Source of the DNA: an uncultured Gammaproteobacteria bacterium
GTDB lineage: Bacteria > Patescibacteriota > Microgenomatia > JALYQM01
Direction of reading: 5' to 3'
NCBI GenBank assembly: GCA_964403585.1
Contig: CAYOFQ010000001.1
Span: 896,680-960,679, forward strand
Length of the DNA: 64,000 bases
This document shows positions 4,140 through 42,692 of this stretch, piece after piece. Position 1 is the stretch's first letter. Each line of letters starts with the position of its first letter. The translations under genes and the position numbers were made by a program. The notes under the pieces were generated by a model. That model searched no databases, was not told where the DNA came from, and was given only the letters and a program-made list of their open reading frames with translations.

Positions 4140-4195
4140 GCGGTGTACAGTATAGCGCCATCCGAAGAATAACAGAAGAAGAAATAAACGGCTGT

Positions 4196-4600
4196 TTAAT
4201 CACCTTCATGGTGAATACCAAGCAGATGAAGTATGGAATGTTCAACCAGTGTATCTATCTCATCATCAACCAGTCGATTGTAATTCGCAGCATTAACCAC
4301 AGCCTGCGGATATGAGATCACAATATCACCTAAATGAAGAACTTTATCCGGAGCATTAATAAAACCACTATCGGATCCGTCGGAACTTTCCTCCAGAGGG
4401 AACGACAACACATCGGTCGTATCATCAATATCCCGAAACTGTTTATTCAATTCCTTCATCTTACGATCACCAATAACCGTAATCGAAAGCTCGACATCGC
4501 CAACCACCCGCATTTCAGCCAGCGTTTTCTCAGTCTGGGCCTTGATACGGTCCTTGTTTATTGGATAGCGGGGATCAATAGTAAACAAAACGTTGATCAT
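4196..4600 (-). CDS. ybeY: rRNA maturation RNase YbeY
   Basis: 134 aa; C-terminal metal-binding motif HSILHLLGIHHEGD (HxxxHxxGxxH). Confidence 0.75.
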   Translation of the reverse strand: MINVLFTIDPRYPINKDRIKAQTEKTLAEMRVVGDVELSITVIGDRKMKELNKQFRDIDDTTDVLSFPLEESSDGSDSGFINAPDKVLHLGDIVISYPQAVVNAANYNRLVDDEIDTLVEHSILHLLGIHHEGD

Positions 4601-4603
4601 GAA

Positions 4604-5074
4604 TTATTGCAAAACCTCTTTAACGATCTTTTGGACAACCGTACCGTCGGCTTTACCTTTCAGTTCCTGCATTACCGGGCCCATTAACTTGCCCATTTCG
4701 GCAGGGGAGGAAACTCCGGCTGCTTCTTTATGCTTTAACACCACGGCACGAATGGCATCCTCACTCATCTGTTCAGGCAAGTACTCCTGAATGATGGTAG
4801 CTTCGGCATGCTCTTTATCGGCCAGTTCAGGACGGGAGGCTTCAGTATAACTCTGAATGGCATCCCGTCGCTGTTTTATCTGCTTGGTAAGTACATTTAA
4901 TACTTCTTCATCAGACAAGGCCTGATCCGATTGACCATATTTTTCAATTTTATAATTCTTGCAGGCAGCAATAGACATCCGGAGCACTTGTAATCTCACT
5001 TCGTCATGAGCTTTCATAGCACTCTTCATGTCTTCATACAAACGATCAAATAAAGTCATAATTTTTTCTCTCAA
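4604..5074 (-). CDS. GatB/YqeY domain protein
   Basis: 156 aa; helical GatB/YqeY-like composition (MTLFDRLYEDMKSAMKA...); often adjacent to rpsU. Confidence 0.65.
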   Translation of the reverse strand: MREKIMTLFDRLYEDMKSAMKAHDEVRLQVLRMSIAACKNYKIEKYGQSDQALSDEEVLNVLTKQIKQRRDAIQSYTEASRPELADKEHAEATIIQEYLPEQMSEDAIRAVVLKHKEAAGVSSPAEMGKLMGPVMQELKGKADGTVVQKIVKEVLQ

Positions 5075-13128: not shown

Positions 13129-13872
13129 ATGAAAAAATATCTATCGGTCCTCACCGTAACTATTGTTTTAACTGCGTGTACAACAAGTAATCCTCCTGAC
13201 AACAACAGCCCTACAGCAACACCTGAAGTGACTTCCACCACGGCAACAGTCACTCCGGTAAAAACAGCATCTCCTTCACCGACAATTACTACTTCATCCT
13301 GGAAAATACATACCCTTCCGGCAATCGGACTTTCATTTCGGCTACCTCCAAAAATGGATGGACTCGGAGTCGCCAAACAGGAAATAGCCGTTGGTGAAAC
13401 CGGAACACAACTGTGTGTACAGTTTGCCAAATCAACCGCCTGGTACGAAAACCTCATTCCGGTGGTCGAAGCAGGTGGCGGCTGTGGAACCGCACCAAAT
13501 AAATTTATTGCCATTGGAACAACCTCAACCGATTATTCTGCCGGCCGCGAAGGGACATTTCTGGATATGCAGGGATTTGCCAAACAGGACGGCAAATATA
13601 TGGAACGCTTCGTACGGGGAGCGCTAAACGAATCATTCCCGCAGGAAAATATTATTCCGGTTAACAATCCGAACGGAGTCGAAGTAATCAAAATCTTAGG
13701 TAGAACTGAGATGGACGACGGACCCACGATAGCCAATTCACTTGGCGACCGTACCGGGGCGCTGGTTAACACCAAAGAAAAAACATATCCGGGACTCGCG
13801 TTTATGTTCGAGGAGACACTCACTCAAGAAGAGATCGACGGGATTCTTATGTCAATCAAGTTTTCGAAGTAA
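13129..13872 (+). CDS. hypothetical lipoprotein
   Basis: 247 aa; signal peptide with lipobox LTAC, Thr/Pro/Ser-rich linker then globular domain. Confidence 0.5.
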   Translation: MKKYLSVLTVTIVLTACTTSNPPDNNSPTATPEVTSTTATVTPVKTASPSPTITTSSWKIHTLPAIGLSFRLPPKMDGLGVAKQEIAVGETGTQLCVQFAKSTAWYENLIPVVEAGGGCGTAPNKFIAIGTTSTDYSAGREGTFLDMQGFAKQDGKYMERFVRGALNESFPQENIIPVNNPNGVEVIKILGRTEMDDGPTIANSLGDRTGALVNTKEKTYPGLAFMFEETLTQEEIDGILMSIKFSK

Positions 13873-13891
13873 TTGATGATATAATCAAGAA

Positions 13892-14737
13892 ATGATTGTT
13901 TCAGGCAAACCGATAGCGCAAAAAATTCTCGAAGACGTTCGTCAGCAAATCGAAACCAACCATCTCCATCCGGACCTGGCCATTATTCTGGCCGGCGAGA
14001 ATCCGGCCTCCCGGATGTATATCAAACATAAAACCAAAGTCGGAGCAGAGATTGGCATCAATGTCATAACCTACGAGTTTGCAGCGTCCGTTCCCGATGA
14101 ATGCATGCGAACAATCGATGCGTTAAACAACGACCCGCAAACCAACGGTATTATTGTCCAATTGCCACTTTACCCGAATTGGGTAACAGATAATTTCGTC
14201 AACCGTGTAGCGCCACAAAAAGATGTCGATGGCTTTGTTCCGAGGACTCCGTTCATCCCGGCTACAGCAGAAGCAACCTGGGAAATGCTGAGCGAATTTG
14301 CCCGCCTTGAGGGCTACCCGATCACCGAAAGTTTTCTTCAAGGCAAAAAAATTGTCGTGCTGGGCAAAGGGAAAACTGCCGGCAAACCGGTACGGGAACT
14401 ACTCAAAACCAAAGGCTTTGATTCAGCATTAATCGACTCAAAAACAAAACACCCCGATGATATTATCAGAGAATCAGACATTATCGTTTCCGCCACCGGC
14501 AAGAAAAATATTATCAACGCCACTAACGTCAAAGACAGTTCCTATGTTATCGGCATCGGTGTTGGCAAAGAAATTGTCGGCGATACCACAAAAACTTTTG
14601 GCGACATTGATGAGGAGGGTATCGAAAACAGAGCAAAACTCATCTGCCCGACAATCGGCGGTATTGGTCCGTTAACCATTGCCTGTCTATTAAGAAACGT
14701 CTCCACAGCTACGCTAAAACAGGCTAGTGAACAATAA
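13892..14737 (+). CDS. folD: bifunctional methylenetetrahydrofolate dehydrogenase/cyclohydrolase
   Basis: 281 aa; MIVSGKPIAQKILEDVRQQIE start, Rossmann GKGKTAGKP, typical FolD length. Confidence 0.9.
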   Translation: MIVSGKPIAQKILEDVRQQIETNHLHPDLAIILAGENPASRMYIKHKTKVGAEIGINVITYEFAASVPDECMRTIDALNNDPQTNGIIVQLPLYPNWVTDNFVNRVAPQKDVDGFVPRTPFIPATAEATWEMLSEFARLEGYPITESFLQGKKIVVLGKGKTAGKPVRELLKTKGFDSALIDSKTKHPDDIIRESDIIVSATGKKNIINATNVKDSSYVIGIGVGKEIVGDTTKTFGDIDEEGIENRAKLICPTIGGIGPLTIACLLRNVSTATLKQASEQ

Positions 14738-15728
14738 TTCCACGAGCTTCCACTTGAATAGGCAAAATTCCCTCGCTCCCGAGGATTTTTTCAAATTCAG
14801 ATACAATAGTGGTTCTATCTTCAGCCTTCTCACATAAAACCCACACACATCCACCATCTCCGGCACCAACTGCCGCGAACCCCGCCGGATACTCATCGAC
14901 AACTTTCTTCAATTCATTAGCAGTACCGTTCAATCGCTCGGGAACTAACTCAACACGGAGTTCGTTTTCCCGCCTAACTAACGCTGCGGCTTGTGCCCAA
15001 TCACACGTATACAGTGCATCATAAAACCGGTGCGAGACTTCATTAATCGCAAACCAGTTCTTTCGTGTCGCAACATTCCAAAACGAAGCCAGTTGCTTCT
15101 CATTTACCACATTCGAATTATGACTTTTACCTAAATAAGCAACCAGTAATCGGTCGTTCAATCCCGAAAATACCTGCCGTCCGCTAATCTCCTCAGATTC
15201 AAATACCTGTTGAGAAGCATATTTCCATAACCATTTGTGAATTCCGCCAAATGCCGCTGCACAATGGTCCTGCATGCCACATAACGAAACATGCATACCG
15301 TCTTCAATCATATAGGCTAACCGCGCCACCATAGCCGCATCAACCGGGGTCTGTTCAGATGTGATGTGACGTTGCGCTTCATAGAGAGCTGCAGCAAAAG
15401 CAACCGCTACAGTACCCGAACCTCCAAGTCCGGCAAAAGGAGGAGCTTCATATTCCAACTGTAATACATATCCGTGTAACCCAAAATGCGACGCAATACT
15501 TGCCAGCAAGCGCAAATCACCATCCAGATTTGCTTGCTCAATCGCAAACTCTTCTGTAGTTAATGTATTTGTTAGTTTAACCCGTCCAAATTCGTAGGGG
15601 ACCAACCGGGCATGCGTTCGCAGAGAAATAGCAATATTGGTAGTACACGGCACAACCCACTCATGAGTCAAAGCGAGGCCTTTAATATCCCACGTTCCGC
15701 CAATATCCAAACGGGCCGGAGCAGACAC
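14724..15728 (-). CDS. GHMP-family sugar kinase
   Basis: GHMP motifs VSAPARLDIGGTWD (N-terminal) and GLGGSGTVAVAFAAAL (motif 2). ORF track extends to 15821 but would overlap the divergent GT2 start. Likely start is GTG at 15728, preceded by AAGGAAAG; the alternative is ATG at 15785. Confidence 0.6.
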   Translation of the reverse strand: MSAPARLDIGGTWDIKGLALTHEWVVPCTTNIAISLRTHARLVPYEFGRVKLTNTLTTEEFAIEQANLDGDLRLLASIASHFGLHGYVLQLEYEAPPFAGLGGSGTVAVAFAAALYEAQRHITSEQTPVDAAMVARLAYMIEDGMHVSLCGMQDHCAAAFGGIHKWLWKYASQQVFESEEISGRQVFSGLNDRLLVAYLGKSHNSNVVNEKQLASFWNVATRKNWFAINEVSHRFYDALYTCDWAQAAALVRRENELRVELVPERLNGTANELKKVVDEYPAGFAAVGAGDGGCVWVLCEKAEDRTTIVSEFEKILGSEGILPIQVEARGIIVH

Positions 15729-15779
15729 ATGAATCTGACTTTCCTTCAACACGTCACCAATATATAATTCTTTCAACGC

Positions 15780-16472
15780 ATGCATATAAGTATTATCGTT
15801 CCTGCTAAAAACGAATCCCAAAATATTAGTAATTTATTCACCCGAATACACACCGCCTGCAGTACGGCAGGACTACCGTATACTATCATTTTTATTAACG
15901 ACGGCTCAACCGATACAACTGCAGACATTCTGAAACAAATCGGTTCTGATTACCCACTAACTATAATTACGCACGAACAAAGCCGGGGCAAAGCAAACTC
16001 GATTCTGGAGGGTGTCGAAGCTGCGCAAACAGATTTTGTCGTGATGATCGATGCCGACCTTCAGTACCCGCCTGAAGCTATTCCTGGAATGGTACAAAAA
16101 ACCCCTGAAGTCCAAATAGTAGTAGCAAGAAGAACAATCAATAATGAAAAAATAGTTCGAAAAGCACTCAGCAAAATTCATGCTTACCTTTTTGGACACC
16201 TTCTATTTGGACTTGACTGTGATATTCAATCGGGACTCAAACTATTGCCGCGGGAGTTAGTAACTCATTTAGACAGATCGAATATCACTGCCTGGACACT
16301 GGATTTATCACTACTTCATACTGCCAAACAGCTCGAATATAAAATAGGAGAGGTACCCATTACTTTTACCGAACGATCCGCAGGGCAATCAAAAGTGAAT
16401 ATCTTCCGATCGATATATGAACACACCTACACAGCCCTGAAGATTAAGTTCTTCAGCAAAAAAATAGTATAA
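15780..16472 (+). CDS. family 2 glycosyltransferase (DPM1-like)
   Basis: 230 aa; ISIIVPAKNE...IIFINDGSTDTT...DAD motif typical GT2 polyprenyl-phosphate sugar transferase. Confidence 0.8.
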   Translation: MHISIIVPAKNESQNISNLFTRIHTACSTAGLPYTIIFINDGSTDTTADILKQIGSDYPLTIITHEQSRGKANSILEGVEAAQTDFVVMIDADLQYPPEAIPGMVQKTPEVQIVVARRTINNEKIVRKALSKIHAYLFGHLLFGLDCDIQSGLKLLPRELVTHLDRSNITAWTLDLSLLHTAKQLEYKIGEVPITFTERSAGQSKVNIFRSIYEHTYTALKIKFFSKKIV

Positions 16473-16481
16473 TGAAAATCT

Positions 16482-16889
16482 ATGAACTACTTTCTCGCTA
16501 AAACCGATCCTGAAACGTATTCCATCACTGATCTGGAAAAAGATAAACAAACGACCTGGGACGGAGTCCGTAATCCCCAGGCAGTAATTTTCTTGAAACA
16601 GATGCAACCGAAGGATAAAGTACTCATTTACCATTCTCAAGGCGAATCCGCCATCGTCGGCCTCGCCGAAGTTGTCGGTAATTCCCGACCAGATCCCAAA
16701 GACACTCGCAGCTGGCTCGTGGATTTTAAGTTCGTTAAGAAGTTTAAAGAACCATACGTAACCTTACAGCAAATTAAAGAATCGGGTAAATTCGACGATT
16801 TTCGCCTGGTTCGCCAGGGGAGATTATCCACTATGGATGTCCCGGAAAAATTTATCGAGTATCTCAAGAAATGCGGCGTTGCACTGTAA
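16482..16889 (+). CDS. EVE (PUA-like) domain protein
   Basis: 135 aa; MNYFLAKTDPETYSITDLEKD...VLIYHSQGESAIVGLAEVVG matches EVE/thymocyte nuclear protein fold. Confidence 0.7.
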   Translation: MNYFLAKTDPETYSITDLEKDKQTTWDGVRNPQAVIFLKQMQPKDKVLIYHSQGESAIVGLAEVVGNSRPDPKDTRSWLVDFKFVKKFKEPYVTLQQIKESGKFDDFRLVRQGRLSTMDVPEKFIEYLKKCGVAL

Positions 16890-29343: not shown

Positions 29344-29788
29344 CGTCCGCCAGGAACTCGAACGGTTAGCTTATCAGTCAACGACGCCGATCGTCGGAAT
29401 CATACTGGAAGGCTACCGCAAGATCGCCTGGCAGCGAAACCTCATTAATCTCGTCGGCTACGTTTTCGCCGGCCTCGTGGTGATCTCGATCGAACTGGAG
29501 GCCCAGCTGCCAAACCCGGCCGAGGCCATCCTCATTCTGGTCACCTTCGCGCTATATATCCTGGCGGCGTGGAAGTCGACTCATAAACGCGTCACCCGAG
29601 GGCTGTTTCGTCGCACACTCAAAGTCGGGACGCTGGTCGCGCTCCCTGTTGTCGTGATGACAAGCGAACTGCTGGGTGTGAACATAACCACGGTCACGCA
29701 GCCGGTTTTGATCGACGCCGTCAGCCGCGGTCTTGCCTGGTGGGCAGTGATGCTCGCGATCACGTTCATCGTGGTCGACCAGGCCTAG
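29276..29788 (+). CDS. hypothetical 4-TM membrane protein within GC-rich patch (start uncertain, possibly fragment)
   Basis: ORF body from ~29343 is ~58-60% GC versus ~42% background. The only ATG (29276) lies in the AT-rich part and overlaps DUF1761 head-to-head; no in-frame start occurs inside the GC-rich portion. Confidence 0.35.
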   Translation: MIEPKLCNTSAAKHPPVTPANNTVRQELERLAYQSTTPIVGIILEGYRKIAWQRNLINLVGYVFAGLVVISIELEAQLPNPAEAILILVTFALYILAAWKSTHKRVTRGLFRRTLKVGTLVALPVVVMTSELLGVNITTVTQPVLIDAVSRGLAWWAVMLAITFIVVDQA

Positions 29789-29973
29789 ACAACATGAGGT
29801 ATAGACAGCAGCAGCTTGTAAAACGGATGGACGACACCAAGTCGGGAAGATTAGCCGCTCTGCGACTAAGCCTTTCTTACTTACCGTCGCTCACCCGCGC
29901 TGTTGCTCTCTATACCTCATCCTCAAAAGATATTCTTGATTTATATAAAACCTGTAGCTACGCTAGAGTAGCT

Positions 29974-31560
29974 ATGCTAAAACTAAAATTGAAGTATATT
30001 CTTCTTCTGGGAGTTCTCTTCTTAATATATCCTCATACCATTTCAGCTGCAGTAACTTGGAACGAAACACAGCCCGCCGGTAACACCAATATCTTTTGGC
30101 ACACACTTTCAATATCTTCAGACGGAACAACACTACTAACCGGCGCCGAAAACGGACGACTGTACCGCTCTACCAACGGCGGAAGTTCCTGGACTGAAAC
30201 ACAGCCTGCAGGAAACACAACCGCATATTGGTATGCCAGCGCAATTTCATCAAACGGACAAAAAATGATTGTCGGCGCATCTTCAGGAAGACTATATCTT
30301 TCATCAGACTACGGCGCCAATTGGACCGAAACCCAACCCGATGGCAACAGCACCCGTAGGTGGTCAACTGCTTCAATGTCATCAGATGGACAAACGATAT
30401 TAGTCACCGAGGATAGCGGATTATCCACCAACGGTCGAGCTTTCATCTCTACAAACGGGGGATCAGCATGGACTGAAACGCAGCCTGCGGGAAATGCAGA
30501 CCGCCGATGGATTGCTGCGGGAATATCTTCCGACGGTACAAAAATGGTTCTCACAACCTGGCAGGGATATGGCAGGATTTTTATATCATCAAACAGCGGC
30601 GGAAGCTGGACTGAAGCTCAACCCGCCGGGAATACGGATAAAAACTGGTATGCCGCAGCCGTTTCCGCCGATGGTCAAAAAATCGTCGTGGGATATTCCA
30701 CCGGAAGAATATATCTATCCACGAACGGAGGAAGCACCTGGGCCGAAACACAACCAGCAGGAGACACCAACATCGCCTGGCAGACAGCAGCGATATCATC
30801 TGATGGCCAAACAATTATCGCGGCAGCCTATTCCGGTAGAATGTACTTGACCACCGATGGAGGAACAAACTGGGCGGAAACACAACCCGCAGGTAATACC
30901 AATAGACCATGGATTTATACCGTCATGTCTGCGGATGCAACCGTACTGGCTGGGAACGTTTTCAATGGAAGAGTATATGTAGCAAGCAACCCACTACCGT
31001 CGCCAACACCGGTGCCAACTCGCTACGAGGCACCTGCACCACCAGTCGAAACGCCAAAATGCACTGTAGCAAAACCATCAACACCTGAACTATTCCAAAT
31101 CAGTACAACCGGAACTACAGCCAAACTGTACTATACCCCGAAATTAGGGCCGGGTAATAAAATAGCTATTGCCTACGGATATAAGCCCGGCGAGAACCGC
31201 TTTGGCATTGAGTTTCCCTCATCAAATACACTGGGGATACAAACCTATTCTATCAACTATCTCACACCTAATACGACATATTATTTTCGTCTTCGAGCCG
31301 GCAATGACTGTATGCCCGGAGAGTGGGGAACAGAATTGAAAGCGACAACAAACAACTCAAAACAGGTTACCAAAACGCAGGTACTAGGAACAATCAACTC
31401 AACAACATGCGGAGATTATTCTGTCCAACCGGGTGATTCTCTGTGGAGCATCGCCCGCAACAATCTCGGCTCCGGATCAAAATATCACTATTTGCTCGAG
31501 CAGAATAAACTCTCCTCAGATAAAATTCGCGTTGGGCAAAAACTGAATCTCGGGTGCTGA
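29974..31560 (+). CDS. secreted BNR/Asp-box repeat beta-propeller protein with C-terminal FN3-like + LysM module
   Basis: Signal peptide MLKLKLKYILLLGVLFLIYPHTISA from ATG 29974 (ORF track over-extends to 29740). Eight repeats of (S/T)xNGGxxWTETQPAGNT (BNR SxDxGxTW). C-terminus has an FN3-like domain (YYFRLRAGNDCMPGEWG) and LysM (CGDYSVQPGDSLWSIARN). Confidence 0.7.
   Translation: MLKLKLKYILLLGVLFLIYPHTISAAVTWNETQPAGNTNIFWHTLSISSDGTTLLTGAENGRLYRSTNGGSSWTETQPAGNTTAYWYASAISSNGQKMIVGASSGRLYLSSDYGANWTETQPDGNSTRRWSTASMSSDGQTILVTEDSGLSTNGRAFISTNGGSAWTETQPAGNADRRWIAAGISSDGTKMVLTTWQGYGRIFISSNSGGSWTEAQPAGNTDKNWYAAAVSADGQKIVVGYSTGRIYLSTNGGSTWAETQPAGDTNIAWQTAAISSDGQTIIAAAYSGRMYLTTDGGTNWAETQPAGNTNRPWIYTVMSADATVLAGNVFNGRVYVASNPLPSPTPVPTRYEAPAPPVETPKCTVAKPSTPELFQISTTGTTAKLYYTPKLGPGNKIAIAYGYKPGENRFGIEFPSSNTLGIQTYSINYLTPNTTYYFRLRAGNDCMPGEWGTELKATTNNSKQVTKTQVLGTINSTTCGDYSVQPGDSLWSIARNNLGSGSKYHYLLEQNKLSSDKIRVGQKLNLGC
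30040..30960 (+). repeat. eight tandem ~138-bp coding repeats (BNR blades)
   Basis: Periodic recurrence of ...aacggngga...tggactgaaacncagcctgcnggnaacac... at DNA level; the minus-strand ORFs 30033-30554 are shadows of this repeat. Confidence 0.6.
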
Positions 31561-31618: not shown

Positions 31619-32509
31619 ATGAAAAAATACATGTTCAGCGCGGCTGTTGTGGTAGCAAGTGTCGCATTTCTTGCCACTAGAACCTCAGCCCATTCCGTAA
31701 TCATCGTTACCCCATCAAATACACAAGGCTTTAGCGCAGCCGATACCCGACCGGGCGGAGCAGTGTCTTTTGTAAATGACCCGACATCACCTTTTCCGGA
31801 TGATGCGCTCCAATTAACTACCGACGCAACCACGACATCCAAAGCTCAATACATGCATGCGGCCGATAATATTCCACTCGGAACCGTGTCAACATTATCC
31901 TATCAAACCAAACAGGTTTCCGGGCCAACCTTTGCCGATCCTTCGTACCAGTTAGCCGTAGACTTAAATGGTGCAGCCGACGGTGGCTTCACTACCTTTG
32001 TCTATGAACCATATCAAAATGGAACTGTCACTCCGGGCGTCTGGCAGGAGTGGGATGTTGATGCCGGACAATTCTGGTCCAGCCGAACCTTCTCCGAAGG
32101 TGGTTGTGCTGTTGTTGCCGGGGCCGGAGGAGCACCGTTCTACACATTGGCAGGAGTACAGGCAATGTGTCCGAATGCCGTTGTTGTCGGCTATGGCGTG
32201 AATATCGGTAGCAATAACCCAAGCTACGTAGTACAAACCGATGCCTTCAATTTTAACGGTACTACCTACGATTTTGAAAACGATCCGGTTGCTTCACCAA
32301 GTCCGTCAGTTGAGCCAAGTGCCTCACCAAGTGCTTCACCATCAGTATCGCCATCAGCCAGTCCAACAGTAGCACCATCTATTTCACCAAGCCCAACACC
32401 GGCAGTACTTGGGGATAAGGATGAATGTAAAAACAACGGCTGGAAAAACTTCACTAACCCGGCATTCAAAAATCAGGGTCAGTGCGTAGCCTACTTTAAT
32501 CACCAATAG
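31619..32509 (+). CDS. hypothetical secreted protein with Ser/Pro-rich repeat linker
   Basis: 296 aa; signal peptide MKKYMFSAAVVVASVAFLATRTSA; tandem SPSxS repeats (ASPSPSVEPSASPSASPSVSPSASPTVAPSISPSPTP); small Cys-containing C-terminal domain. Confidence 0.5.
   Translation: MKKYMFSAAVVVASVAFLATRTSAHSVIIVTPSNTQGFSAADTRPGGAVSFVNDPTSPFPDDALQLTTDATTTSKAQYMHAADNIPLGTVSTLSYQTKQVSGPTFADPSYQLAVDLNGAADGGFTTFVYEPYQNGTVTPGVWQEWDVDAGQFWSSRTFSEGGCAVVAGAGGAPFYTLAGVQAMCPNAVVVGYGVNIGSNNPSYVVQTDAFNFNGTTYDFENDPVASPSPSVEPSASPSASPSVSPSASPTVAPSISPSPTPAVLGDKDECKNNGWKNFTNPAFKNQGQCVAYFNHQ
32285..32405 (+). repeat. short tandem coding repeats (SPSxS units)
   Basis: Repeated agtgc(c/t)tcacca / agtccaaca units encoding Ser-Pro-Ser-Ala/Val linker in the 31619-32509 gene. 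Confidence 0.5.
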
Positions 32510-32556: not shown

Positions 32557-32607
32557 GTAATGACCTGCATCACAGTAATACCAGGGAATTTAGTGTATCC
32601 CAAGCGC

Positions 32608-33072
32608 ATGAAGACACTGGTTCTATATGACTCCGTATACGGTAATACCGAAAAAATCGCCCAGGCAATCGCCGAAGGCATCGCCAAAGATGTCGAAGTA
32701 AAAACGATCAAAGACGTTACTCCAGACGAACTACGCAGATATGAGTTGCTGGTGATTGGCTCACCGGTGCACGGCGGGATGCCTACTCCGGCCATGGATA
32801 AGTACATCAAAGGATTGCCTAAGAAATCCCTGGAAAATGTACTGGTTACAACCTTTGATACCCGATTTGCGGTTGAGGGACAATCATTCGGCATAAAACT
32901 GCTTCTCAATCTCATCCAGTATGCCGCCGAGAAAATGTCTGCCGAGCTGGTAAAAAAAGGCGCCACTCTGCGAGCCAACCCCCAGGGATTTATTGTTCAG
33001 GAAAAAGAAGGTCCGCTCCGGACAGGGGAACTTGAACGTGCTAAAACCTGGGGAGCTACTCTCGTCGGCTAA
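32608..33072 (+). CDS. flavodoxin
   Basis: MKTLVLYDSVYGNTEKIAQAIAEGI FMN-binding N-terminus; the ORF-track ATG at 32560 abuts the terminator, so ATG 32608 is preferred. Confidence 0.7.
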   Translation: MKTLVLYDSVYGNTEKIAQAIAEGIAKDVEVKTIKDVTPDELRRYELLVIGSPVHGGMPTPAMDKYIKGLPKKSLENVLVTTFDTRFAVEGQSFGIKLLLNLIQYAAEKMSAELVKKGATLRANPQGFIVQEKEGPLRTGELERAKTWGATLVG

Positions 33073-34391: not shown

Positions 34392-35936
34392 TTAATTACT
34401 TAAAATTTGTTCTAACCAGATATTCGAAAAGAGCATTTCCGGATCCTGTTCTTTCTTCAATTTAATAAAATCATCCCACCCCGGATACATATTCCTAACC
34501 ACTTCGTGATCCAAATAAGAACCGTAACATAAATAATAGGAACTATCTAATTGGAGGAGTGTTTTCCCAAGTTCTTTAGTAAAAGAGGCTAGATTATGCT
34601 GAGATTCATCAGCCGTGCTCAGGGAATAATAGGCAACGATACCATATCGATCTACAGGTACATAGGACAGTGTCGAAAGGGTCTCAGCCGGAACTTTACG
34701 AACAGTAACATTTATCAAATTTAGTTTATAGTTCTTAACCAGTGATTTATATGCATCAAGAAATGCGTAAAATTTATCCGGCGGAACAAAATATTCCTGC
34801 AACACATCTGTATGCTGCGGGTCGCTATGTTCAAGAAACGAAACTGAGGCAGCCATCGCTTCATTTCGCTGAATTTGTTTTTTTTCAATGAGTGGAGTAA
34901 TCTCAGACTCCATCATCCACCTGAATTTTTTACCAAAATCATGCAACTTAGAAAATTCAATAACACTTTTTCGAACCCACTTTGAAGAATTCCCTGAAAG
35001 ATCAGGATCAGAAACAATCGGCGACATCGACCTTTCCCGATACTCATACACTAAAGATTTTTCAAACATCATTTCAGAATCTATATTCAAATGTGCTTCA
35101 TACATTCCAATCGCAGGATCATTGCTCCGCTTTTCCAGCTCATTCAATAACTCCAAGGTCGGGTATTCCTGGAGCTTAAAAGAATAAGTTGAGTTAGGTA
35201 CGGTGATCAAATTAATCTCGGAAATATAGCCAAACACCCCGTATCCACCAACAACAGCATTGAACAAATCTGATTTTTGAGTTCGCGAAAGCTGCACCTC
35301 TTCACCGGTAGCGGTAATAATTTTAAGATAATTAATGGTCTCAACAAGCGGACCAAAGTGCGGGTCTTTACCGTGTGCATTTACACTAACCGAACCTCCA
35401 ACAGTGAAAATATTAGAGTCCTGCATGACAGCGACAGCACGATTATGTTTATTCAATACTGTTTGAACTTGTTTCCAGGTCGCACCAGGCTGGACAGTAA
35501 CTGAACTGTCACTATCATTGTATTCCACTGCATCCATTTTAAGCGTAGAAATATGCAGTGAGTCACGTAATAGAATCTGTCCTCCCATACTATGCCGAAC
35601 TCCGGAAAATGAAACTTTTTTTCCAAGCTTTCTGGCATAATCGATAATCTGAATAACTTCTGTAGAAGAAACCGGTTGATACAGCCCGCTTACTTCACTA
35701 CTGTTAAGCCAACTAGCATCAGTCAACGTTGTCGATCCAAGCGCAGGGTAGGGAAGTACTTTAGGCAAAACCGGCGCAATGGTTAATTTATGGTTATCAG
35801 GATAACTCTGAAACAGGTCAGTCAAAATCCAGCGCCTAGTTTTATCCAACCACAGTGTTGATATGGTTATTAGAGCTACACAAGCGAGAAAAGCGAATAA
35901 ATAGCTCCAATTAATAATTCTTCGTCGTTTTAGCAT
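34392..35936 (-). CDS. FAD-linked oxidase (FAD_binding_4 / PCMH-type) membrane-anchored
   Basis: 514 aa; N-terminal TM; FAD-binding segment VSFSGVRHSMGGQ and VGGYGVFGYI typical of vanillyl-alcohol-oxidase/DprE1/ALO-like flavoenzymes. Confidence 0.65.
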   Translation of the reverse strand: MLKRRRIINWSYLFAFLACVALITISTLWLDKTRRWILTDLFQSYPDNHKLTIAPVLPKVLPYPALGSTTLTDASWLNSSEVSGLYQPVSSTEVIQIIDYARKLGKKVSFSGVRHSMGGQILLRDSLHISTLKMDAVEYNDSDSSVTVQPGATWKQVQTVLNKHNRAVAVMQDSNIFTVGGSVSVNAHGKDPHFGPLVETINYLKIITATGEEVQLSRTQKSDLFNAVVGGYGVFGYISEINLITVPNSTYSFKLQEYPTLELLNELEKRSNDPAIGMYEAHLNIDSEMMFEKSLVYEYRERSMSPIVSDPDLSGNSSKWVRKSVIEFSKLHDFGKKFRWMMESEITPLIEKKQIQRNEAMAASVSFLEHSDPQHTDVLQEYFVPPDKFYAFLDAYKSLVKNYKLNLINVTVRKVPAETLSTLSYVPVDRYGIVAYYSLSTADESQHNLASFTKELGKTLLQLDSSYYLCYGSYLDHEVVRNMYPGWDDFIKLKKEQDPEMLFSNIWLEQILSN

Positions 35937-36027: not shown

Positions 36028-36642
36028 ATGAAAAAACTAGTTATCGCCAGCCAAAACGCAGCCAAAATAAAAGAGTTCGCCGAATTCTTATCGGATCTTC
36101 CTCTTGAAATTGTTTCTCTCACGGATCTTGCTATTACTGATGACGTCGAAGAAGACGGTGAGACATACGAAGCTAACTCTCAAAAAAAAGCTTTGTTTTA
36201 CGCTCATAAGAGTGGACTCCCCGCCATATCCGATGATGGCGGTCTGGAGATTGCGGCACTTAACGGGGAACCGGGCGTAAAAACAAAACGGTGGTTGGGG
36301 TATGAAGCAACTCAAGAAGAATTAATGAATAATATGCGAAAAGTAGCACTCGCGCTTCCCGAAAATAATCGCCAGGCGCAATTCAGAACCGTTGTTACCG
36401 TTGCACTGCCTGATGGCAGATTCTGGAGTGTGGAAGGTAAGTCAGTCGGTATAATTGCCAGAGAACCCTACAAGAATGCACTGAACGGGTATCCCTACCG
36501 TGCATTTTTCTTCCTTCCCGATATAAATAAATACCACCACAAAGATGAATTAACTGCTGAAGAACAAAAGAAATATAATCACCGTCTTATTGCAATAGAA
36601 AAACTCAAGGGAGTAATAGCTAAGGAAATTATCCCCGAATAG
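36028..36642 (+). CDS. rdgB: non-canonical purine NTP pyrophosphatase (Ham1/RdgB ITPase)
   Basis: 204 aa; MKKLVIASQNAAKIKEF...ETYEANSQKKA...ISDDGGLEIAALNGEPGVKTKRW matches Ham1 family motifs. Confidence 0.8.
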   Translation: MKKLVIASQNAAKIKEFAEFLSDLPLEIVSLTDLAITDDVEEDGETYEANSQKKALFYAHKSGLPAISDDGGLEIAALNGEPGVKTKRWLGYEATQEELMNNMRKVALALPENNRQAQFRTVVTVALPDGRFWSVEGKSVGIIAREPYKNALNGYPYRAFFFLPDINKYHHKDELTAEEQKKYNHRLIAIEKLKGVIAKEIIPE

Positions 36643-37432
36643 CACAGACACGAACTTCTCTCGTATTGTTATCGCCGTCAAAAACTATATGAGTATAACC
36701 CCGTGCTTCGAGCTGTGCCCGCATTTGCTCAACAGTGAATGTTGCCTTAGGCGCAGAGACAGCCGAAGGATTGACGGTTTGATCATTAAGGAAATCAAAA
36801 AGTACTACACCACCTGGTCGGACTATTCTCGACATTTCATCAAGGAACGTTCCACTTAGTTCGGAGCCAACATGAGAGACGACAATCCCTCTACTTATAG
36901 CATAATCAACTGAACTGTCAGGTAAAGGAATACTTGTCGCTGATGCAGGTAGGGTAACGGCATCGGGATATTTTCCTGCTGCAATAGCAAGCATTTCAGG
37001 GGCTATGTCGAGCAAATATAACCGACTTACCTTCCCGGCAAGTGGTCGTGTTGCTTCTGCAGTACCGCAACCAATATCAATACCCGTTCCTGCCTGGGCT
37101 AAGGAGCCAAAAACATCGCCGGCGAATTTATTAAATCTCGCGTAAGTCGCAGCCGTGTAGTGATCAGAGCGTTTAATTTGCTGATCCCATGTGGCAGCTC
37201 TTGAGCCCCACCGAGCGGCTAATGAAGCCAATGATTCAGTAGTAGAAATTCCTTCAACAATAGGCCGGATACTTGGTGCCTGATCAGCCTGCGCACTGCC
37301 TGTCTCGGAAGTAGTAATGTTTTCTTTTGTCGCCATAGATGTCGGGGATAGTATCATTGTAATTTCTAAAAAGCAATGGCTTAATATCCTTGATTTTTCT
37401 AAACAGTTTGATATACTCGCCCAATTGTACAA
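36629..37432 (-). CDS. class I SAM-dependent methyltransferase (start uncertain)
   Basis: Motif I GIDIGCGTAEATRP, post-I acidic LLDIA, motif RPGGVVLFD. Alternative starts MILSP (37357) and MATKEN (37336); none has a clear RBS. Confidence 0.6.
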   Translation of the reverse strand: MYNWASISNCLEKSRILSHCFLEITMILSPTSMATKENITTSETGSAQADQAPSIRPIVEGISTTESLASLAARWGSRAATWDQQIKRSDHYTAATYARFNKFAGDVFGSLAQAGTGIDIGCGTAEATRPLAGKVSRLYLLDIAPEMLAIAAGKYPDAVTLPASATSIPLPDSSVDYAISRGIVVSHVGSELSGTFLDEMSRIVRPGGVVLFDFLNDQTVNPSAVSAPKATFTVEQMRAQLEARGYTHIVFDGDNNTREVRVCAIRG

Positions 37433-37467: not shown

Positions 37468-38121
37468 ATGAAAATCGACCGAAATATTATAGCAGTGCTC
37501 GGGATTAATGGCGTAGGCAAGACGACCATCATTAACAATGCACTTGCATATGCTCCGGAAGGAAGTGTCGCCTTTAATGCTGCTGATTTAATGCTTGCTT
37601 ACCTAGGGCTGGAAAGCAGAAGTCAGCTTGAACAAGTCCCCTCAGCTATTAAAGAGGAAGCTCGCCGGGACTCCATTCTGCATATGGCAAGACAATATGC
37701 GGATCGTCCACTGGTTTTCCTCGACACCCATATGCAAATTGGAATAGGCAAGGGTACGGAACGTACAAAACATGTGACATGGGCACCGGAATTTAACCTC
37801 ATTATTGCGAAAGGAATTTTTATCCACGGCTGCACTGACGACATCCAAATGAGAAGGTCTCAGCGACCAGGGGGTGGCCGGAGCCTGGATCCAATGACAA
37901 TTCAGGCTGATCAGGCTGAAGAACTGCAATTATTCGAGGCTATGGTTTCAGGCGAAGTACCAACTTCCCGTATTTTTAATCCTCAGGATCAACTTGATAC
38001 TACCGTTGCCTTATTTTTAGCCGAACTGGGCATTAGCAGATTCCGCAGGGTAGAAAGTCAGCAAATTCTCCCGGTATCTCTTGAATCACAACATACTCCA
38101 AGATACGGAAAGGAATTCTAA
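37468..38121 (+). CDS. archaeal-type adenylate-kinase-like P-loop NMP kinase
   Basis: From ATG 37468 (ORF track over-extends to 37390). IAVLGINGVGKTT Walker A, LDTHMQIGIGKGT and IHGCTDDIQMRRSQRPGGGRSLD segments align with archaeal AdkA (VDTHSTV...; [22 protein letters not shown]). Confidence 0.5.
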   Translation: MKIDRNIIAVLGINGVGKTTIINNALAYAPEGSVAFNAADLMLAYLGLESRSQLEQVPSAIKEEARRDSILHMARQYADRPLVFLDTHMQIGIGKGTERTKHVTWAPEFNLIIAKGIFIHGCTDDIQMRRSQRPGGGRSLDPMTIQADQAEELQLFEAMVSGEVPTSRIFNPQDQLDTTVALFLAELGISRFRRVESQQILPVSLESQHTPRYGKEF

Positions 38122-38127
38122 ATTCAT

Positions 38128-38523
38128 ATGAAAACGATCGACAAATTGAGTTTCGTAACTATCAAGGACCGTAAAGTTTTATTTGTTTTAGAGAAAAATA
38201 ATACGATCTGGTATACCCCGGGTGGTAAGCGCGAAGAAGGTGAACTTGATCATGAAACCTTACTGCGCGAGACTAAAGAGGAACTAAATATCGATTTGGT
38301 TCCCGAATCCATTTCTCACATACATACGATAACCGTTGAGTCAGTCGATAAACCTGACGTGATGGTAAATCTTATCTGCTACACCGCAGAATATTCGGGA
38401 GAAATAAACCCTCAAAATGAAATTGAAAAAGTTGCCTATCTTACACATAGTGACACCCACCTTGTAGCACAAGGCGGGAATTTACTGCTTCAGTATTTAA
38501 AACAAAACAATCTTATTGATTAG
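38128..38523 (+). CDS. Nudix hydrolase
   Basis: 131 aa; Nudix box GGKREEGELDHETLLRETKEELNI (Gx5Ex7REUxEExGU). Confidence 0.7.
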   Translation: MKTIDKLSFVTIKDRKVLFVLEKNNTIWYTPGGKREEGELDHETLLRETKEELNIDLVPESISHIHTITVESVDKPDVMVNLICYTAEYSGEINPQNEIEKVAYLTHSDTHLVAQGGNLLLQYLKQNNLID

Positions 38524-38551: not shown

Positions 38552-39289
38552 ATGAAAGTATATTTAGATAATTTTGGGTATCAAGTACATGGAGAGACTA
38601 TCGGTGAGATGTGGCTCTCATTGGTTGATGCAGTTATCTCACATGGCACCCATAGTTTAGACGAGGACCGCGACCGGATAGCCCTGCAAAATATTCGGGT
38701 CCGATCGTCACAACAGAACTTTGATGATCCAATCATCGCAAAGTACGGGAAAAAAGAAAATGTTGACGCAATCATCAATTTAACCTTTCAGGAAGCAAAA
38801 ATGACCGACATCGACATCAAGCCAAGCTTTAGCCCAGGAGCTAAAAGTTATTTCCAGCGCATTGTTGAAGGTCGAATGGTAGAGTTTGTGATTAAGCGGT
38901 TAAGCATGATTCCTGAAAGCAAAAAAGCGGTTATTGTCTTTCCTACATACGAAGACTACGAGGCAGTGCTGAAGACTCCAAAAGATGACTACTTACCATG
39001 TATTGTATCTATTCAGTTTAGACTGATGCCGGTTGAGAATGGTGCATATGTTCTTGATACCACATTCTATGCACGCTCACTTGATATTTTCCAAAAAGGG
39101 TACGGAAATTTTGTGGCTATCACATTGCTCTCAAAAAATATCGCCCAGGAAATATCTAAAAACCTGGGAGTTCCTGTTACCTTAGGCTTTCTCGACGGGC
39201 TTATTGCTGACGCTCATGTTTACGGTGAATTAACTACTAAAGCAGAAGAAACTTTGACACAGGCTAAAACCGACGGCGATTTAAAATAA
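38552..39289 (+). CDS. divergent thymidylate-synthase-fold enzyme (ThyA / dUMP-hydroxymethylase family)
   Basis: 245 aa. Aligns by eye to ThyA landmarks: DRDRIALQNIRVRS ~ DRTGTGTLSIFGHQMRF; ESKKAVIVFPT ~ DSRRIIVSAWN; catalytic-Cys region DYLPCIVSIQF ~ LAPCHAFFQF (His replaced by Ile); RSLDIFQKGYGNF ~ RSCDVFLGLPFNI (Asn kept, so uracil specificity); ADAHVY ~ GDTHLY. Confidence 0.55.
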   Translation: MKVYLDNFGYQVHGETIGEMWLSLVDAVISHGTHSLDEDRDRIALQNIRVRSSQQNFDDPIIAKYGKKENVDAIINLTFQEAKMTDIDIKPSFSPGAKSYFQRIVEGRMVEFVIKRLSMIPESKKAVIVFPTYEDYEAVLKTPKDDYLPCIVSIQFRLMPVENGAYVLDTTFYARSLDIFQKGYGNFVAITLLSKNIAQEISKNLGVPVTLGFLDGLIADAHVYGELTTKAEETLTQAKTDGDLK

Positions 39290-39376: not shown

Positions 39377-39952
39377 CTATTTATCCAGACTACATTGGCC
39401 AGTATGCCACGCACTAGGATTTACTGCATATAGTGTGCACCATAATTCCTTAGCCGTCTGAGTGTATAAGGTCGGAAAAATCTTAGCCTTCCTAAACTCA
39501 TACCAATTCTCTTTGAAACTATTACCCTGACTAGATTGTTCCATTATCTCCAAATCTACATCCAAACTATCCGCATCTCTTACAATTTTGGCTTCTTTCG
39601 ATTCCCTTTGTTCAAATTCAACCCATAATGCAAACAGTTCTGCCTGGAATACTGTGTCCGACAGAATATCTTGTAATGCACTATTATCGTTTCTGTTCGT
39701 GTAATACCTGGCAACATAATGGCAATCTCCGGTTCGAACTTCGGGCACGTCATGAATAAGAGCCATCTTCATAAGCTTTTCTGTATTTACTTTCTCCTCA
39801 TAGCTTGCTAGCGTTAAGGCTATCCATAACACTCGTAGCGTATGCTCACTAACATTGGCAACATGTGGAGCAAGAAATTGTCGCCAGGTACGCTGCACCA
39901 GACGTAAAGTTCCTATTTCATAGAGAAATACCGCATTTCTTTTGTAATTCAT
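39377..39952 (-). CDS. HD-domain 5'-deoxynucleotidase (YfbR-like)
   Basis: 191 aa; RTWRQ...NVSEHTLRV...ALIHDVPEVRTGD HD motif pattern typical of YfbR/HDDC2. Confidence 0.7.
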   Translation of the reverse strand: MNYKRNAVFLYEIGTLRLVQRTWRQFLAPHVANVSEHTLRVLWIALTLASYEEKVNTEKLMKMALIHDVPEVRTGDCHYVARYYTNRNDNSALQDILSDTVFQAELFALWVEFEQRESKEAKIVRDADSLDVDLEIMEQSSQGNSFKENWYEFRKAKIFPTLYTQTAKELWCTLYAVNPSAWHTGQCSLDK

Positions 39953-40053: not shown

Positions 40054-40761
40054 ATGAAACATCCACATCCTACACAAATGGGGATTCTGAAGAAGTTAGT
40101 CTTTGCCGAGTCACTCAGGTATACGGAATTAAAACCCACCGAGGACCTGGAAAATAACACATTCGATTTCCATCTCGACCAATTAATAGCACAAAAATTT
40201 ATCGTTAAACACGACGGCAAGTACAAACTTACCAACATAGGCAAGGAATACGCAGGAAGAATGGATACCGAAAAAGCGCTTATAACCAACCAGGCAAAGG
40301 TATCAGTGCTTCTTTTTGCAACCAAGGAGATTAACGGCGAATTGTATTATCTTATTTACACCCGACTAAAACAACCGTTTTACGGCGCTCAAGGTCTCAT
40401 TTCCGGGAAGGTCGGGTGGGGAGAGAAAATAATTGACGCCGCCGAACGCGAACTGTTTGAAGAGTCAGGATTAGTAGGCAAAGCAGAAATTGCAGGGATG
40501 AGACACTACATGGTAAAAAACGAAAATACCACTGAACTACTAGATGACAAAATGATGTTTTTTTGTATTTTCCGTAATCCGCGTGGGGAAATAGTCGCAG
40601 GAGACGAGGGTCGCTATGAGTGGGTAGCGCAAAGTAAAATAAATTCGTTCATTACAAAACCTATAGAAGATGATTTGGATATTTTGTTTGATAACCTGAA
40701 CAAATACAATGGTACGAACCTTTTTATAGAAGAATTTGAACATGTTACAGATAAATTCTAA
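40054..40761 (+). CDS. winged-helix-Nudix fusion protein
   Basis: 235 aa; N-terminal ~70 aa wHTH-like (GILKKLVFAESLRYTEL), C-terminal Nudix box GKVGWGEKIIDAAERELFEESGL. Confidence 0.65.
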   Translation: MKHPHPTQMGILKKLVFAESLRYTELKPTEDLENNTFDFHLDQLIAQKFIVKHDGKYKLTNIGKEYAGRMDTEKALITNQAKVSVLLFATKEINGELYYLIYTRLKQPFYGAQGLISGKVGWGEKIIDAAERELFEESGLVGKAEIAGMRHYMVKNENTTELLDDKMMFFCIFRNPRGEIVAGDEGRYEWVAQSKINSFITKPIEDDLDILFDNLNKYNGTNLFIEEFEHVTDKF

Positions 40762-41878: not shown

Positions 41879-42268
41879 ATGTCCCGTCAGTCAGCCAAAT
41901 ATATAGTTATTACTCTGTTACGCTGGTCAATTATTCTCCCGACAGCTATTACCGTCTCGGTTACATTCTTATATTGGCTTATTTATCAGCCAACAGGGTG
42001 GGGAGTCCTAACAATCTTCCTGATAGCATACTACACAGTGCTATTAAGCGGTATCATCTGTAATGCCGTTGTTTTACGACATATTTACAACCACCTTCAG
42101 AGCAAATACCCCCAACTCGTCTATAATGCCGGAAAATACTATTTTATCCTGCTTTTTGGATATTTCTGCCTCATACCGCTACTCGGATTCGGAGTACTTG
42201 CGTTATTTACCATAGCTAACCCTATAATTATTATACTTTCCATTATTCTGGCAGAATTCGTCCATTAG
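41879..42268 (+). CDS. hypothetical 4-TM membrane protein (tandem paralog A)
   Basis: 129 aa; shares TM topology and spaced motifs with the next gene. Confidence 0.45.
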   Translation: MSRQSAKYIVITLLRWSIILPTAITVSVTFLYWLIYQPTGWGVLTIFLIAYYTVLLSGIICNAVVLRHIYNHLQSKYPQLVYNAGKYYFILLFGYFCLIPLLGFGVLALFTIANPIIIILSIILAEFVH

Positions 42269-42275
42269 GAGCTCT

Positions 42276-42692
42276 ATGAACAAAAAGGATTGGGACAACC
42301 AAATTTTAAAAGTACTAGTCAAATGGTGCTTCTTCTACCCGCTGGGAGCAGCTGTTACTGTCGCGGCGCTCCTGACGCTGGCCGGCGGACATTTCGACGG
42401 GTGGGCGCTGGTGGGGGCAATTTTCATCGGTTATTACGCATTATTGGTACTGGGAACCGTCGGCAACCTCAACGCGGTAGGCAAAACTTACACCATTCTC
42501 GAACAACAGGAGCCCAAAATCCTTAATAAAGTTGTCCTGTACTATTGCCTGATCATGGGTACCTATTTGTGCTTACTTCCATTCATGATCAGCATTTGGT
42601 TCCTCGGGTTTCTGATTATTAACCCCGGAACTATCCTGTTATCCATCACCATAGCTACGCTCATTGAACCTAAAAAGAAAAACGGACGGTAA
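42276..42692 (+). CDS. hypothetical 4-TM membrane protein (tandem paralog B)
   Basis: 138 aa; paralog of 41879-42268; N-terminal half (42300-42530) is conspicuously GC-rich. Confidence 0.45.
   Translation: MNKKDWDNQILKVLVKWCFFYPLGAAVTVAALLTLAGGHFDGWALVGAIFIGYYALLVLGTVGNLNAVGKTYTILEQQEPKILNKVVLYYCLIMGTYLCLLPFMISIWFLGFLIINPGTILLSITIATLIEPKKKNGR

Follow-up and report, generated by a model that had tools for sequence, protein, structure and literature searches.

An AdkA-like P-loop kinase marks a rare protein family and a candidate nucleotide-modification gene module in uncultivated prokaryotes

AdkA proteins are archaeal trimeric adenylate kinases, represented in the Protein Data Bank (PDB) by 1KHT, 1KI9, 6PJW/6PK5, 1NKS and 6LN3, with a core of approximately 190 amino acids (aa) that comprises an N-terminal P-loop, an alpha-helical nucleoside-monophosphate (NMP)-binding domain, a DTH motif with a beta-hairpin, a short RR...R lid, and a helix and strand that act as trimer elements. 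Here we describe P0001, a 217-aa P-loop kinase encoded at 37468..38121 on the forward strand of a 64-kb stretch of DNA from an uncultured bacterium (contig CAYOFQ010000001.1; hereafter ‘the window’, meaning the whole stretch analysed), which shares all of these features, the trimer elements as seen in a predicted monomer. P0001 differs from AdkA in overall sequence (approximately 17–21% identity), in its P-loop (GINGVGKT rather than GVPGVG(S/G/K)T), in an extra C-terminal tail and in belonging to a family that occurs in bacteria and metagenome-assembled genomes (MAGs), in operons with nucleotide-modifying enzymes. The AdkA-like kinase fold is itself already known; what is apparently undescribed is the family and the gene module that P0001 marks. 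OdinAK (PDB 7OWE and related entries), the housekeeping AMP kinase of a hyperthermophile, showed no sequence-level relationship to P0001 beyond the family profile. Our analysis indicates that P0001 is most likely an ATP-dependent NMP kinase with a predicted AdkA fold, and we give a probability of about 0.5 to the reading that it serves as a pyrimidine (d)NMP kinase dedicated to the product of a neighbouring thymidylate synthase (TS)-like enzyme.

The gene module in which the family is found follows the pathway logic and gene set of phage T4 gp56 dCTPase, gp42 dCMP hydroxymethylase and gp1 dNMP kinase, and the same logic is seen in the TS-homologue/dNMP-kinase pairs of RB69 and DLP3 (PMC13326640; PMC5175136). 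A TS homologue and its cognate dNMP kinase suffice to place a modified base, 5-hydroxy-dC, in DNA (PMC13326640). Unlike the T4-type set, the module is chromosomal, carries an extra S-adenosylmethionine (SAM)-dependent methyltransferase (MTase) and has TS-like proteins without the folate-helix segment. P0001 has no detectable homology to gp1-type kinases; a PHROGs scan gave only a family of unknown function (E = 0.079). Among TS homologues, Asn at a key position marks uracil substrates and Asp cytosine substrates (PMC5175136). The bacimethrin and mildiomycin pathways (BcmA/MilA CMP hydroxymethylase and BcmC methyltransferase) combine an Asp-type TS homologue with a SAM methyltransferase (PMC5175136), as does the canonical module of the family, but the module has no N-glycosidase and no ThiD-like kinase, its kinase is an NMP kinase, and the TS-like protein of the window is of the uracil type.

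The family is very small. When 1.84 billion cluster representatives were searched exhaustively with HMMER (E <= 1e-3), only 21 relatives of P0001 were recovered, each of approximately 190 aa and with 24–31% identity; a word-indexed homologue search retrieved P0001 alone and, when rerun with the family alignment, six proteins. The 22-member alignment (A1) is coherent, with the motifs G[IV]NG[VI]GK[ST], R..LE......K, DTHL.V.IR....YE..W and I..RR..D....GR.R......I..DQ..N. Its profile matches end to end only the archaeal trimeric AdkA structures (6pjw at E = 1.5e-8, 1kht, 3h86, 1ki9, 1nks and 6ln3) and matches bacterial Adk at the P-loop only, in agreement with the original prediction, made from the DNA alone, of an archaeal-type rather than bacterial-type kinase. 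All 22 members match AAA_17 at E <= 0.01 (best E = 7.5e-13), and 16 match NF003122 (best E = 3.7e-10). A family hidden Markov model (HMM) built without the query gave P0001 103.6 bits over profile positions 2–183 of 191, compared with 31 bits for AdkA and 27.7 bits for another AAA_17 kinase; P0001 therefore belongs to a distinct, rare family and is not an AdkA orthologue. The family apparently comprises undescribed AdkA-like kinases.

P0001 keeps every signature residue of the family: the P-loop G[IV]NG[VI]GK[ST], R51, L54, E55, K62, D86-x-H88, W105, R129, R130, R138 and D148. Among curated profiles its best matches are Pfam AAA_17 (PF13207), at 26.3 bits over positions 1–130 of 136 and 0.7 bit short of the gathering threshold of 27, and NCBIfam NF003122, the archaeal adenylate kinase equivalog, at 28.9 bits (E = 7.2e-7, residues 6–96) against a cutoff of 155 bits. 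AAA_17 is in effect the AdkA family, because AdkA 1KHT matches it from end to end with 134 bits. P0001 matches neither the bacterial and eukaryotic profile (Pfam ADK), whose lid and NMP-bind arrangement it does not have, nor the thymidylate kinase (Tmk) profile PF02223. The original prediction had likened three motif blocks to archaeal AdkA. The AdkA strings that it quoted are genuine, as M. voltae AdkA is identical in sequence to PDB 1KHT_A, and BLASTP pairs the DTH and lid blocks as proposed, although with a pairwise E of only 0.14.

The open reading frame (ORF) of the kinase is intact. The ATG at 37468, proposed as its start, is supported by the relatives, which begin 1–5 residues ahead of the conserved Asn6 and strand beta1; in its closest relative, from contig L002, the protein starts at the position that corresponds to residue 3. 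A longer form from TTG 37390 lacks such homologue support. An alignment-based AlphaFold2 (AF2) model (pLDDT, predicted local distance difference test, 88.8) is confident over residues 1–190; a single-sequence model (pLDDT 42) was discarded. This monomer model matches the AdkA fold, with a short lid, a beta-hairpin after the DTH motif, and a long helix (142–159) and strand (166–170) at the AdkA trimerisation elements. The Walker A P-loop GINGVGKTT spans residues 12–20 (37501..37527), of which G12, N14, G15, G17 and K18 vary little or not at all across the family. The LDTHMQIG motif occupies residues 85–92 (37720..37743) and opens the block LDTHMQIG..GKGT (85–97), with D86 and H88 common to the family and AdkA; the hairpin that follows (90–103) has its strands at 90–93 and 100–103, and in OdinAK the equivalent hairpin is a trimer contact (PMC9635829). 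The lid, DDIQMRRSQRPGGGRSLD, covers residues 124–141 (37837..37890), and its R129, R130 and R138 align with AdkA R131, R132 and R140. At the end of the protein, an extension of approximately 30 aa (38026..38121) has no counterpart among the relatives in A1; pLDDT falls to 64, 54 and 37 over the final three 10-residue blocks and stays below 50 over residues 207–217. P0001 is judged to be AdkA-like in fold and ancestry; the observation behind the original prediction is confirmed and its interpretation is supported.

Scans of genome and metagenome collections, together with contig look-ups, yielded 20 loci that encode family members (L007–L026), 16 of them distinct. Their sources are Patescibacteria, Parcubacteria, Saccharimonadia, unclassified MAGs and MAGs that carry the label Gammaproteobacteria. 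In 14 of the 15 loci with upstream sequence, the kinase is directly preceded by a co-directional Ham1 domain, and the two often abut. The gene encoding it is often a fusion of approximately 580 aa with the order Ham1–MTase–Ham1; elsewhere it encodes MTase–Ham1, Ham1–MTase or Ham1 alone. Five such fusions (L008:6238-7977, L014:4452-6206, L016:6233-7996, L007:1704-3491 and L013:630-2369) all stand directly upstream of the AdkA-like kinase and comprise a divergent N-terminal Ham1-like domain, a class I SAM MTase and an Mj0226-like Ham1 domain; in L008 the C-terminal Ham1 domain is closest to Methanocaldococcus jannaschii Mj0226. A TS-like gene is found just upstream or divergently in 11 of 12 assessable loci, some loci also have a NUDIX or QueC-like gene, and the kinase stands last in the module. 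None of the 16 distinct loci is viral. In full-text literature searches we found neither this module nor the Ham1–MTase–Ham1 fusion described.

The TS-like partners fall into two types. We aligned them to Escherichia coli ThyA, a query that matched the PDB entry for E. coli thymidylate synthase end to end (630.9 bits). All keep C146, R166, S167, D169, H207 and Y209 (ThyA numbering), among them the catalytic Cys and residues that bind the nucleotide, and all are without the segment bearing E58, W80 and W83, the folate helix. The protein of the window (38552-39289) also has N177. This position is Asn in 120 of 120 homologues of the window protein and Asp in all 12 TS-like proteins encoded beside family kinases. 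Residues of the Lys/Ser signature for ribo versus deoxy substrates are mixed. Other examples of these TS-like proteins lie at L007:1133-1747 and L010:6208-6981, and a short form of approximately 204 aa exists. Homologues of the window protein number more than 600 and come mostly from Patescibacteria and DPANN MAGs.

Beside TS-like genes of the Asn type, as in the window, the kinase position is taken by different enzymes. L003 and L029 have other AdkA-like kinases there and L027 has a fragment of one; in L006 a canonical thymidylate kinase (PF02223) takes the kinase position, after the TS-like and QueC-like genes. Because Tmk holds the equivalent position there, a thymidylate-like acceptor is supported for the Asn-type branch, and by analogy the arrangement suggests that Tmk and the family kinase may be functionally equivalent beside a TS-like gene. 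Further partners of Asn-type TS proteins include QueC-like proteins, Ham1, NUDIX, and CYTH or NDK. A QueC-like PP-loop ATPase very often follows (L027:5728-7185, L003:6747-7592, L006:6729-7598, L004:6177-7049 and L029:5755-6495), and in L027, from a DPANN archaeon, QueC is fused to Ham1. Such a partner points to a further, as yet undescribed conversion of the TS product, for example ATP-dependent amination or thiolation.

The window contains the same gene set as the family module but in unfused form: Ham1, MTase, kinase, NUDIX and TS-like. Profile matches confirm that the ‘nucleotide island’ named in the original prediction is real and extend it to an HD-domain YfbR-like protein and a winged-helix–NUDIX protein. 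A Ham1/RdgB-like NTP pyrophosphatase (36028..36642, forward; Pfam Ham1p_like, 2.8e-40) is followed by a class I SAM MTase on the reverse strand (36629..37336; Pfam Methyltransf_11/25), divergent from the kinase across 131 bp; in other loci the Ham1 and MTase parts are fused and co-directional with the kinase. The start of the MTase at 37336 agrees with a called gene in L001, and across 236 aa the protein shares 31% identity with the MTase region of the Ham1–MTase fusion of L018 (E = 8e-23). Downstream, on the forward strand, lie a NUDIX hydrolase, a probable operon partner (38128..38523; Pfam NUDIX, 1.5e-10, with weak matches to NudG and MutT models), and the TS-like gene, of archaeal or methanogen type (38552..39289; PF00303 and TIGR03283). 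Only 6 nt separate the kinase stop from the NUDIX start and 28 nt the NUDIX stop from the TS-like start, and no terminator was found between the three genes; from this spacing we infer a co-transcribed operon with the kinase as first gene. Within the 131 bp between the divergent MTase and kinase genes, a promoter-like sequence, TTGATT-16-TATACT with a TG element (37390..37417, forward), comes from a consensus scan only, in which the number of sites was not above shuffled expectation. The NUDIX–TS pair occurs also in L002, L004 and L018, and in L002 a copy of the family kinase is kept upstream of it. The window is hence best described as a hybrid, with an Asn-type TS and NUDIX alongside an MTase and a divergent kinase of the Asp-associated family.

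In the pathway that we propose, the NUDIX or Ham1 protein would hydrolyse a pyrimidine (d)NTP to its (d)NMP with release of pyrophosphate; the TS-like enzyme, with its uracil-type Asn in the window, would modify C5 of that (d)NMP, and the kinase would phosphorylate the product to the diphosphate and so return it to the triphosphate pool. The logic would be that of phage T4 gp56, gp42 and gp1, or of ThyA followed by Tmk. The analysis shows the synteny, the fold as modelled, the family membership and the conservation of ATP-site residues; for the phosphate acceptor, its ribo or deoxy form and the role of the MTase, we infer the assignment.

Several observations weigh against this assignment. P0001 is the most deviant member of its family: of the 34 columns with conservation of 80% or more, it departs in 10, 6 of them non-conservatively. 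It has G94 for a near-invariant Arg and H102 for a near-invariant Glu, and in the lid a three-residue deletion removes the conserved Asp after RR, while G136 stands at the position of the critical AdkA R138. The NMP-domain layout and DTH motif are common to true adenylate kinases, and one family member carries the JGI label ‘adenylate kinase’. Adjacency of kinase and TS-like gene could be secondary in the window, because the TS proteins of the family are Asp-type in 12 of 12 cases and that of the window is Asn-type. The TS-like proteins are without the canonical folate-binding segment, which bears on their chemistry and hence on the kinase substrate. Finally, the window Ham1 looks like an ordinary RdgB, closer to standalone Ham1, and has only a weak likeness to the Ham1 domains of the fusion proteins, which makes its membership of the module uncertain.

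Some of the departures are shared. The closest relative of P0001, encoded on L002 (38% identity; tblastn E = 1e-27), also has DTHM, His at position 102 in place of the family Glu102, and an R..GGR lid, and we take the recurrence of these deviations at only approximately 38% identity to point to a sublineage under constraint and not to random decay. In AdkA, R131, R138 and R140 have roles in the lid (PMC10883716); R133 of P0001, three residues before G136 and present also in the L002 relative, might substitute for the R138-equivalent Arg. Three in-frame stops in the L002 kinase had raised the possibility of a pseudogene. We rejected this reading because two compensating frameshifts restore a well-conserved frame and other genes on the contig are also split, which makes long-read indel errors at least as likely; the split frames are likely assembly errors. 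On L002 (1644-2153 and 2776-5512), an IS110-family transposase and a 445-aa ORF without a Pfam match stand between the kinase homologue and the NUDIX–TS pair. Two further ideas were set aside: P0001 is no nearer to true AdkA than its relatives, as it ranks mid-table on a methanococcal AdkA profile, and Glu or His at position 102 does not track the Asp or Asn type of the partner TS, given that the AdkA-like kinase of L029 has YE beside an Asn-type TS, and given also the trimer contact that the hairpin makes in OdinAK.

Might P0001 instead be a genuine archaeal-type adenylate kinase (AMP + ATP <-> 2 ADP), acquired by a bacterium and placed in the cluster by general nucleotide economy? All of its best sequence and fold matches are adenylate kinases, and to the NF003122 matches and the JGI annotation can be added the conservation of the P-loop, DTH, RR pair and one lid Arg. 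However, the score of P0001 is far from the equivalog cutoff (28.9 versus 155 bits), the equivalent of AdkA R138 is Gly, and AdkA R60 (in DRDQMRK of the AMP-binding domain) aligns in the profile comparison with an invariant Glu of the family. With 21 matches in 1.84e9 representatives, the family is also too rare for a housekeeping Adk, and in 16 loci it shows a tight linkage to TS-like and Ham1/MTase genes that such an enzyme would not have. We consider this explanation unlikely. A different option is that P0001 acts on a cytosine-derived modified (d)NMP, as other family members with Asp-type TS partners presumably do, and that the adjoining Asn-type TS and NUDIX genes are an unrelated thymidylate module. 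The cytosine-type Asp in every TS-like protein beside a family kinase (PMC5175136) points this way, as do the adjacent MTase homologue and the retention of the family-specific R51, E55 and K62 in the NMP domain. Yet there is no Asp-type TS-like gene anywhere in the 64-kb window, the kinase–NUDIX–TS spacing is operon-like, and the order of kinase then NUDIX–TS is found again in L002, whose kinase shares the sublineage changes of P0001, and we regard a cytosine-derived substrate as rather improbable.

P0001 might also be a relic of the module, in decay or with impaired catalysis, or else an NTP-binding regulator that is no longer a kinase. This would fit its many deviations, through which two conserved Arg, one Asp and one Glu are lost, together with the unstructured 30-aa extension and a module that in the window is unfused, rearranged and missing its usual Asp-type TS. 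Against decay, the ORF is intact, the model is confident over residues 1–190, several deviations are common to the L002 relative, and all ATP-site residues are kept (G12, N14, G15, G17, K18, D86, H88, R129, R130, R138 and D148); loss of function seems to us very doubtful. Phosphorylation of a non-nucleotide small molecule, as by shikimate, gluconate and chloramphenicol kinases, is more remote still and would be a considerable surprise. A dedicated pyrimidine (d)NMP kinase is the reading that we retain.

Viral origin was considered and rejected. Neither protein nor family-pattern searches found relatives of the family in IMG/VR, the Ham1–MTase–Ham1 fusion had no match in 50,697 phage records, and the best match of the kinase in BFVD (viral structures) was generic P-loop similarity, with a TM score of approximately 0.5 and a root-mean-square deviation above 5 Å. 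Membership of a known defence system was likewise rejected, as the kinase matches PADLOC models in the P-loop only. Probably through generic domain similarity, the NUDIX protein (38128-38523) has a match to PDC-S07, a candidate defence family of PADLOC (E = 1.9e-12), and the MTase has one to mad2 (E = 6e-12). A compositional island was excluded, since the GC content of the cluster (0.39–0.45) is inside the range of the window. In one Patescibacteria-type contig, L016, the module sits between T4SS pilin-like and PrgI/TraC/TraG-like genes (3409-4996 and 13150-16645) and may be in a conjugative or mobile context.

Beyond the TS-like gene, the island of the window continues with an HD-domain YfbR-like 5′-deoxynucleotidase (39377..39952, reverse; Pfam HD_3, YfbR-like) and a winged-helix (DUF7347/HTH_45)–NUDIX fusion (40054..40761, forward; Pfam), neither of which has a counterpart in any related locus; the winged-helix part is an archaeal-style regulator domain. 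The flanks are housekeeping genes: YchF, S6, SSB, S18, L9, a peptide-chain release factor and MurJ. Between ychF and rpsF–ssb–rpsR lie two adjacent genes for small hydrophobic, probably membrane, proteins of similar size without Pfam matches (41879-42268 and 42276-42692). Immediately upstream of the island, on the opposite strand, is a gene for a 514-aa FAD_binding_4/arabinonolactone-oxidase-like flavoprotein with an N-terminal hydrophobic segment (34392-35936), and a flavodoxin is encoded at 32560-33072. Further upstream, a 606-aa protein (29740-31560) combines approximately seven Sortilin/BNR-type repeats, each of which contains W(T/A)ETQPAGN, with a LysM domain at its C terminus; the next gene (31619-32509) encodes a secreted protein without a Pfam match that has a linker rich in Pro and Ser.

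The family module unites three activities of phage base replacement, an NTP pyrophosphatase, a TS homologue and a dedicated NMP kinase, and adds a SAM methyltransferase that is fused inside a tandem Ham1 protein. It is tempting, although speculative and on present evidence doubtful, to see in it a cellular pre-replicative pathway by which Patescibacteria and other uncultivated prokaryotes make a pyrimidine (d)NTP that is modified at C5 and possibly methylated or aminated as well. The product could enter the DNA of the cell itself, as in T-even phages, or could be a nucleotide-derived metabolite or signal; phosphorylation by the kinase would then be what commits the modified monophosphate to the triphosphate pool. 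The Asn/Asp-partitioned TS homologues and their partner kinases form a clean set for biochemistry, and the family cautions against labelling its members ‘adenylate kinase’. If a modified nucleotide is indeed made in these cells, pre-replicative base modification would extend beyond viruses, and AdkA-type kinases would gain a new class of substrate.
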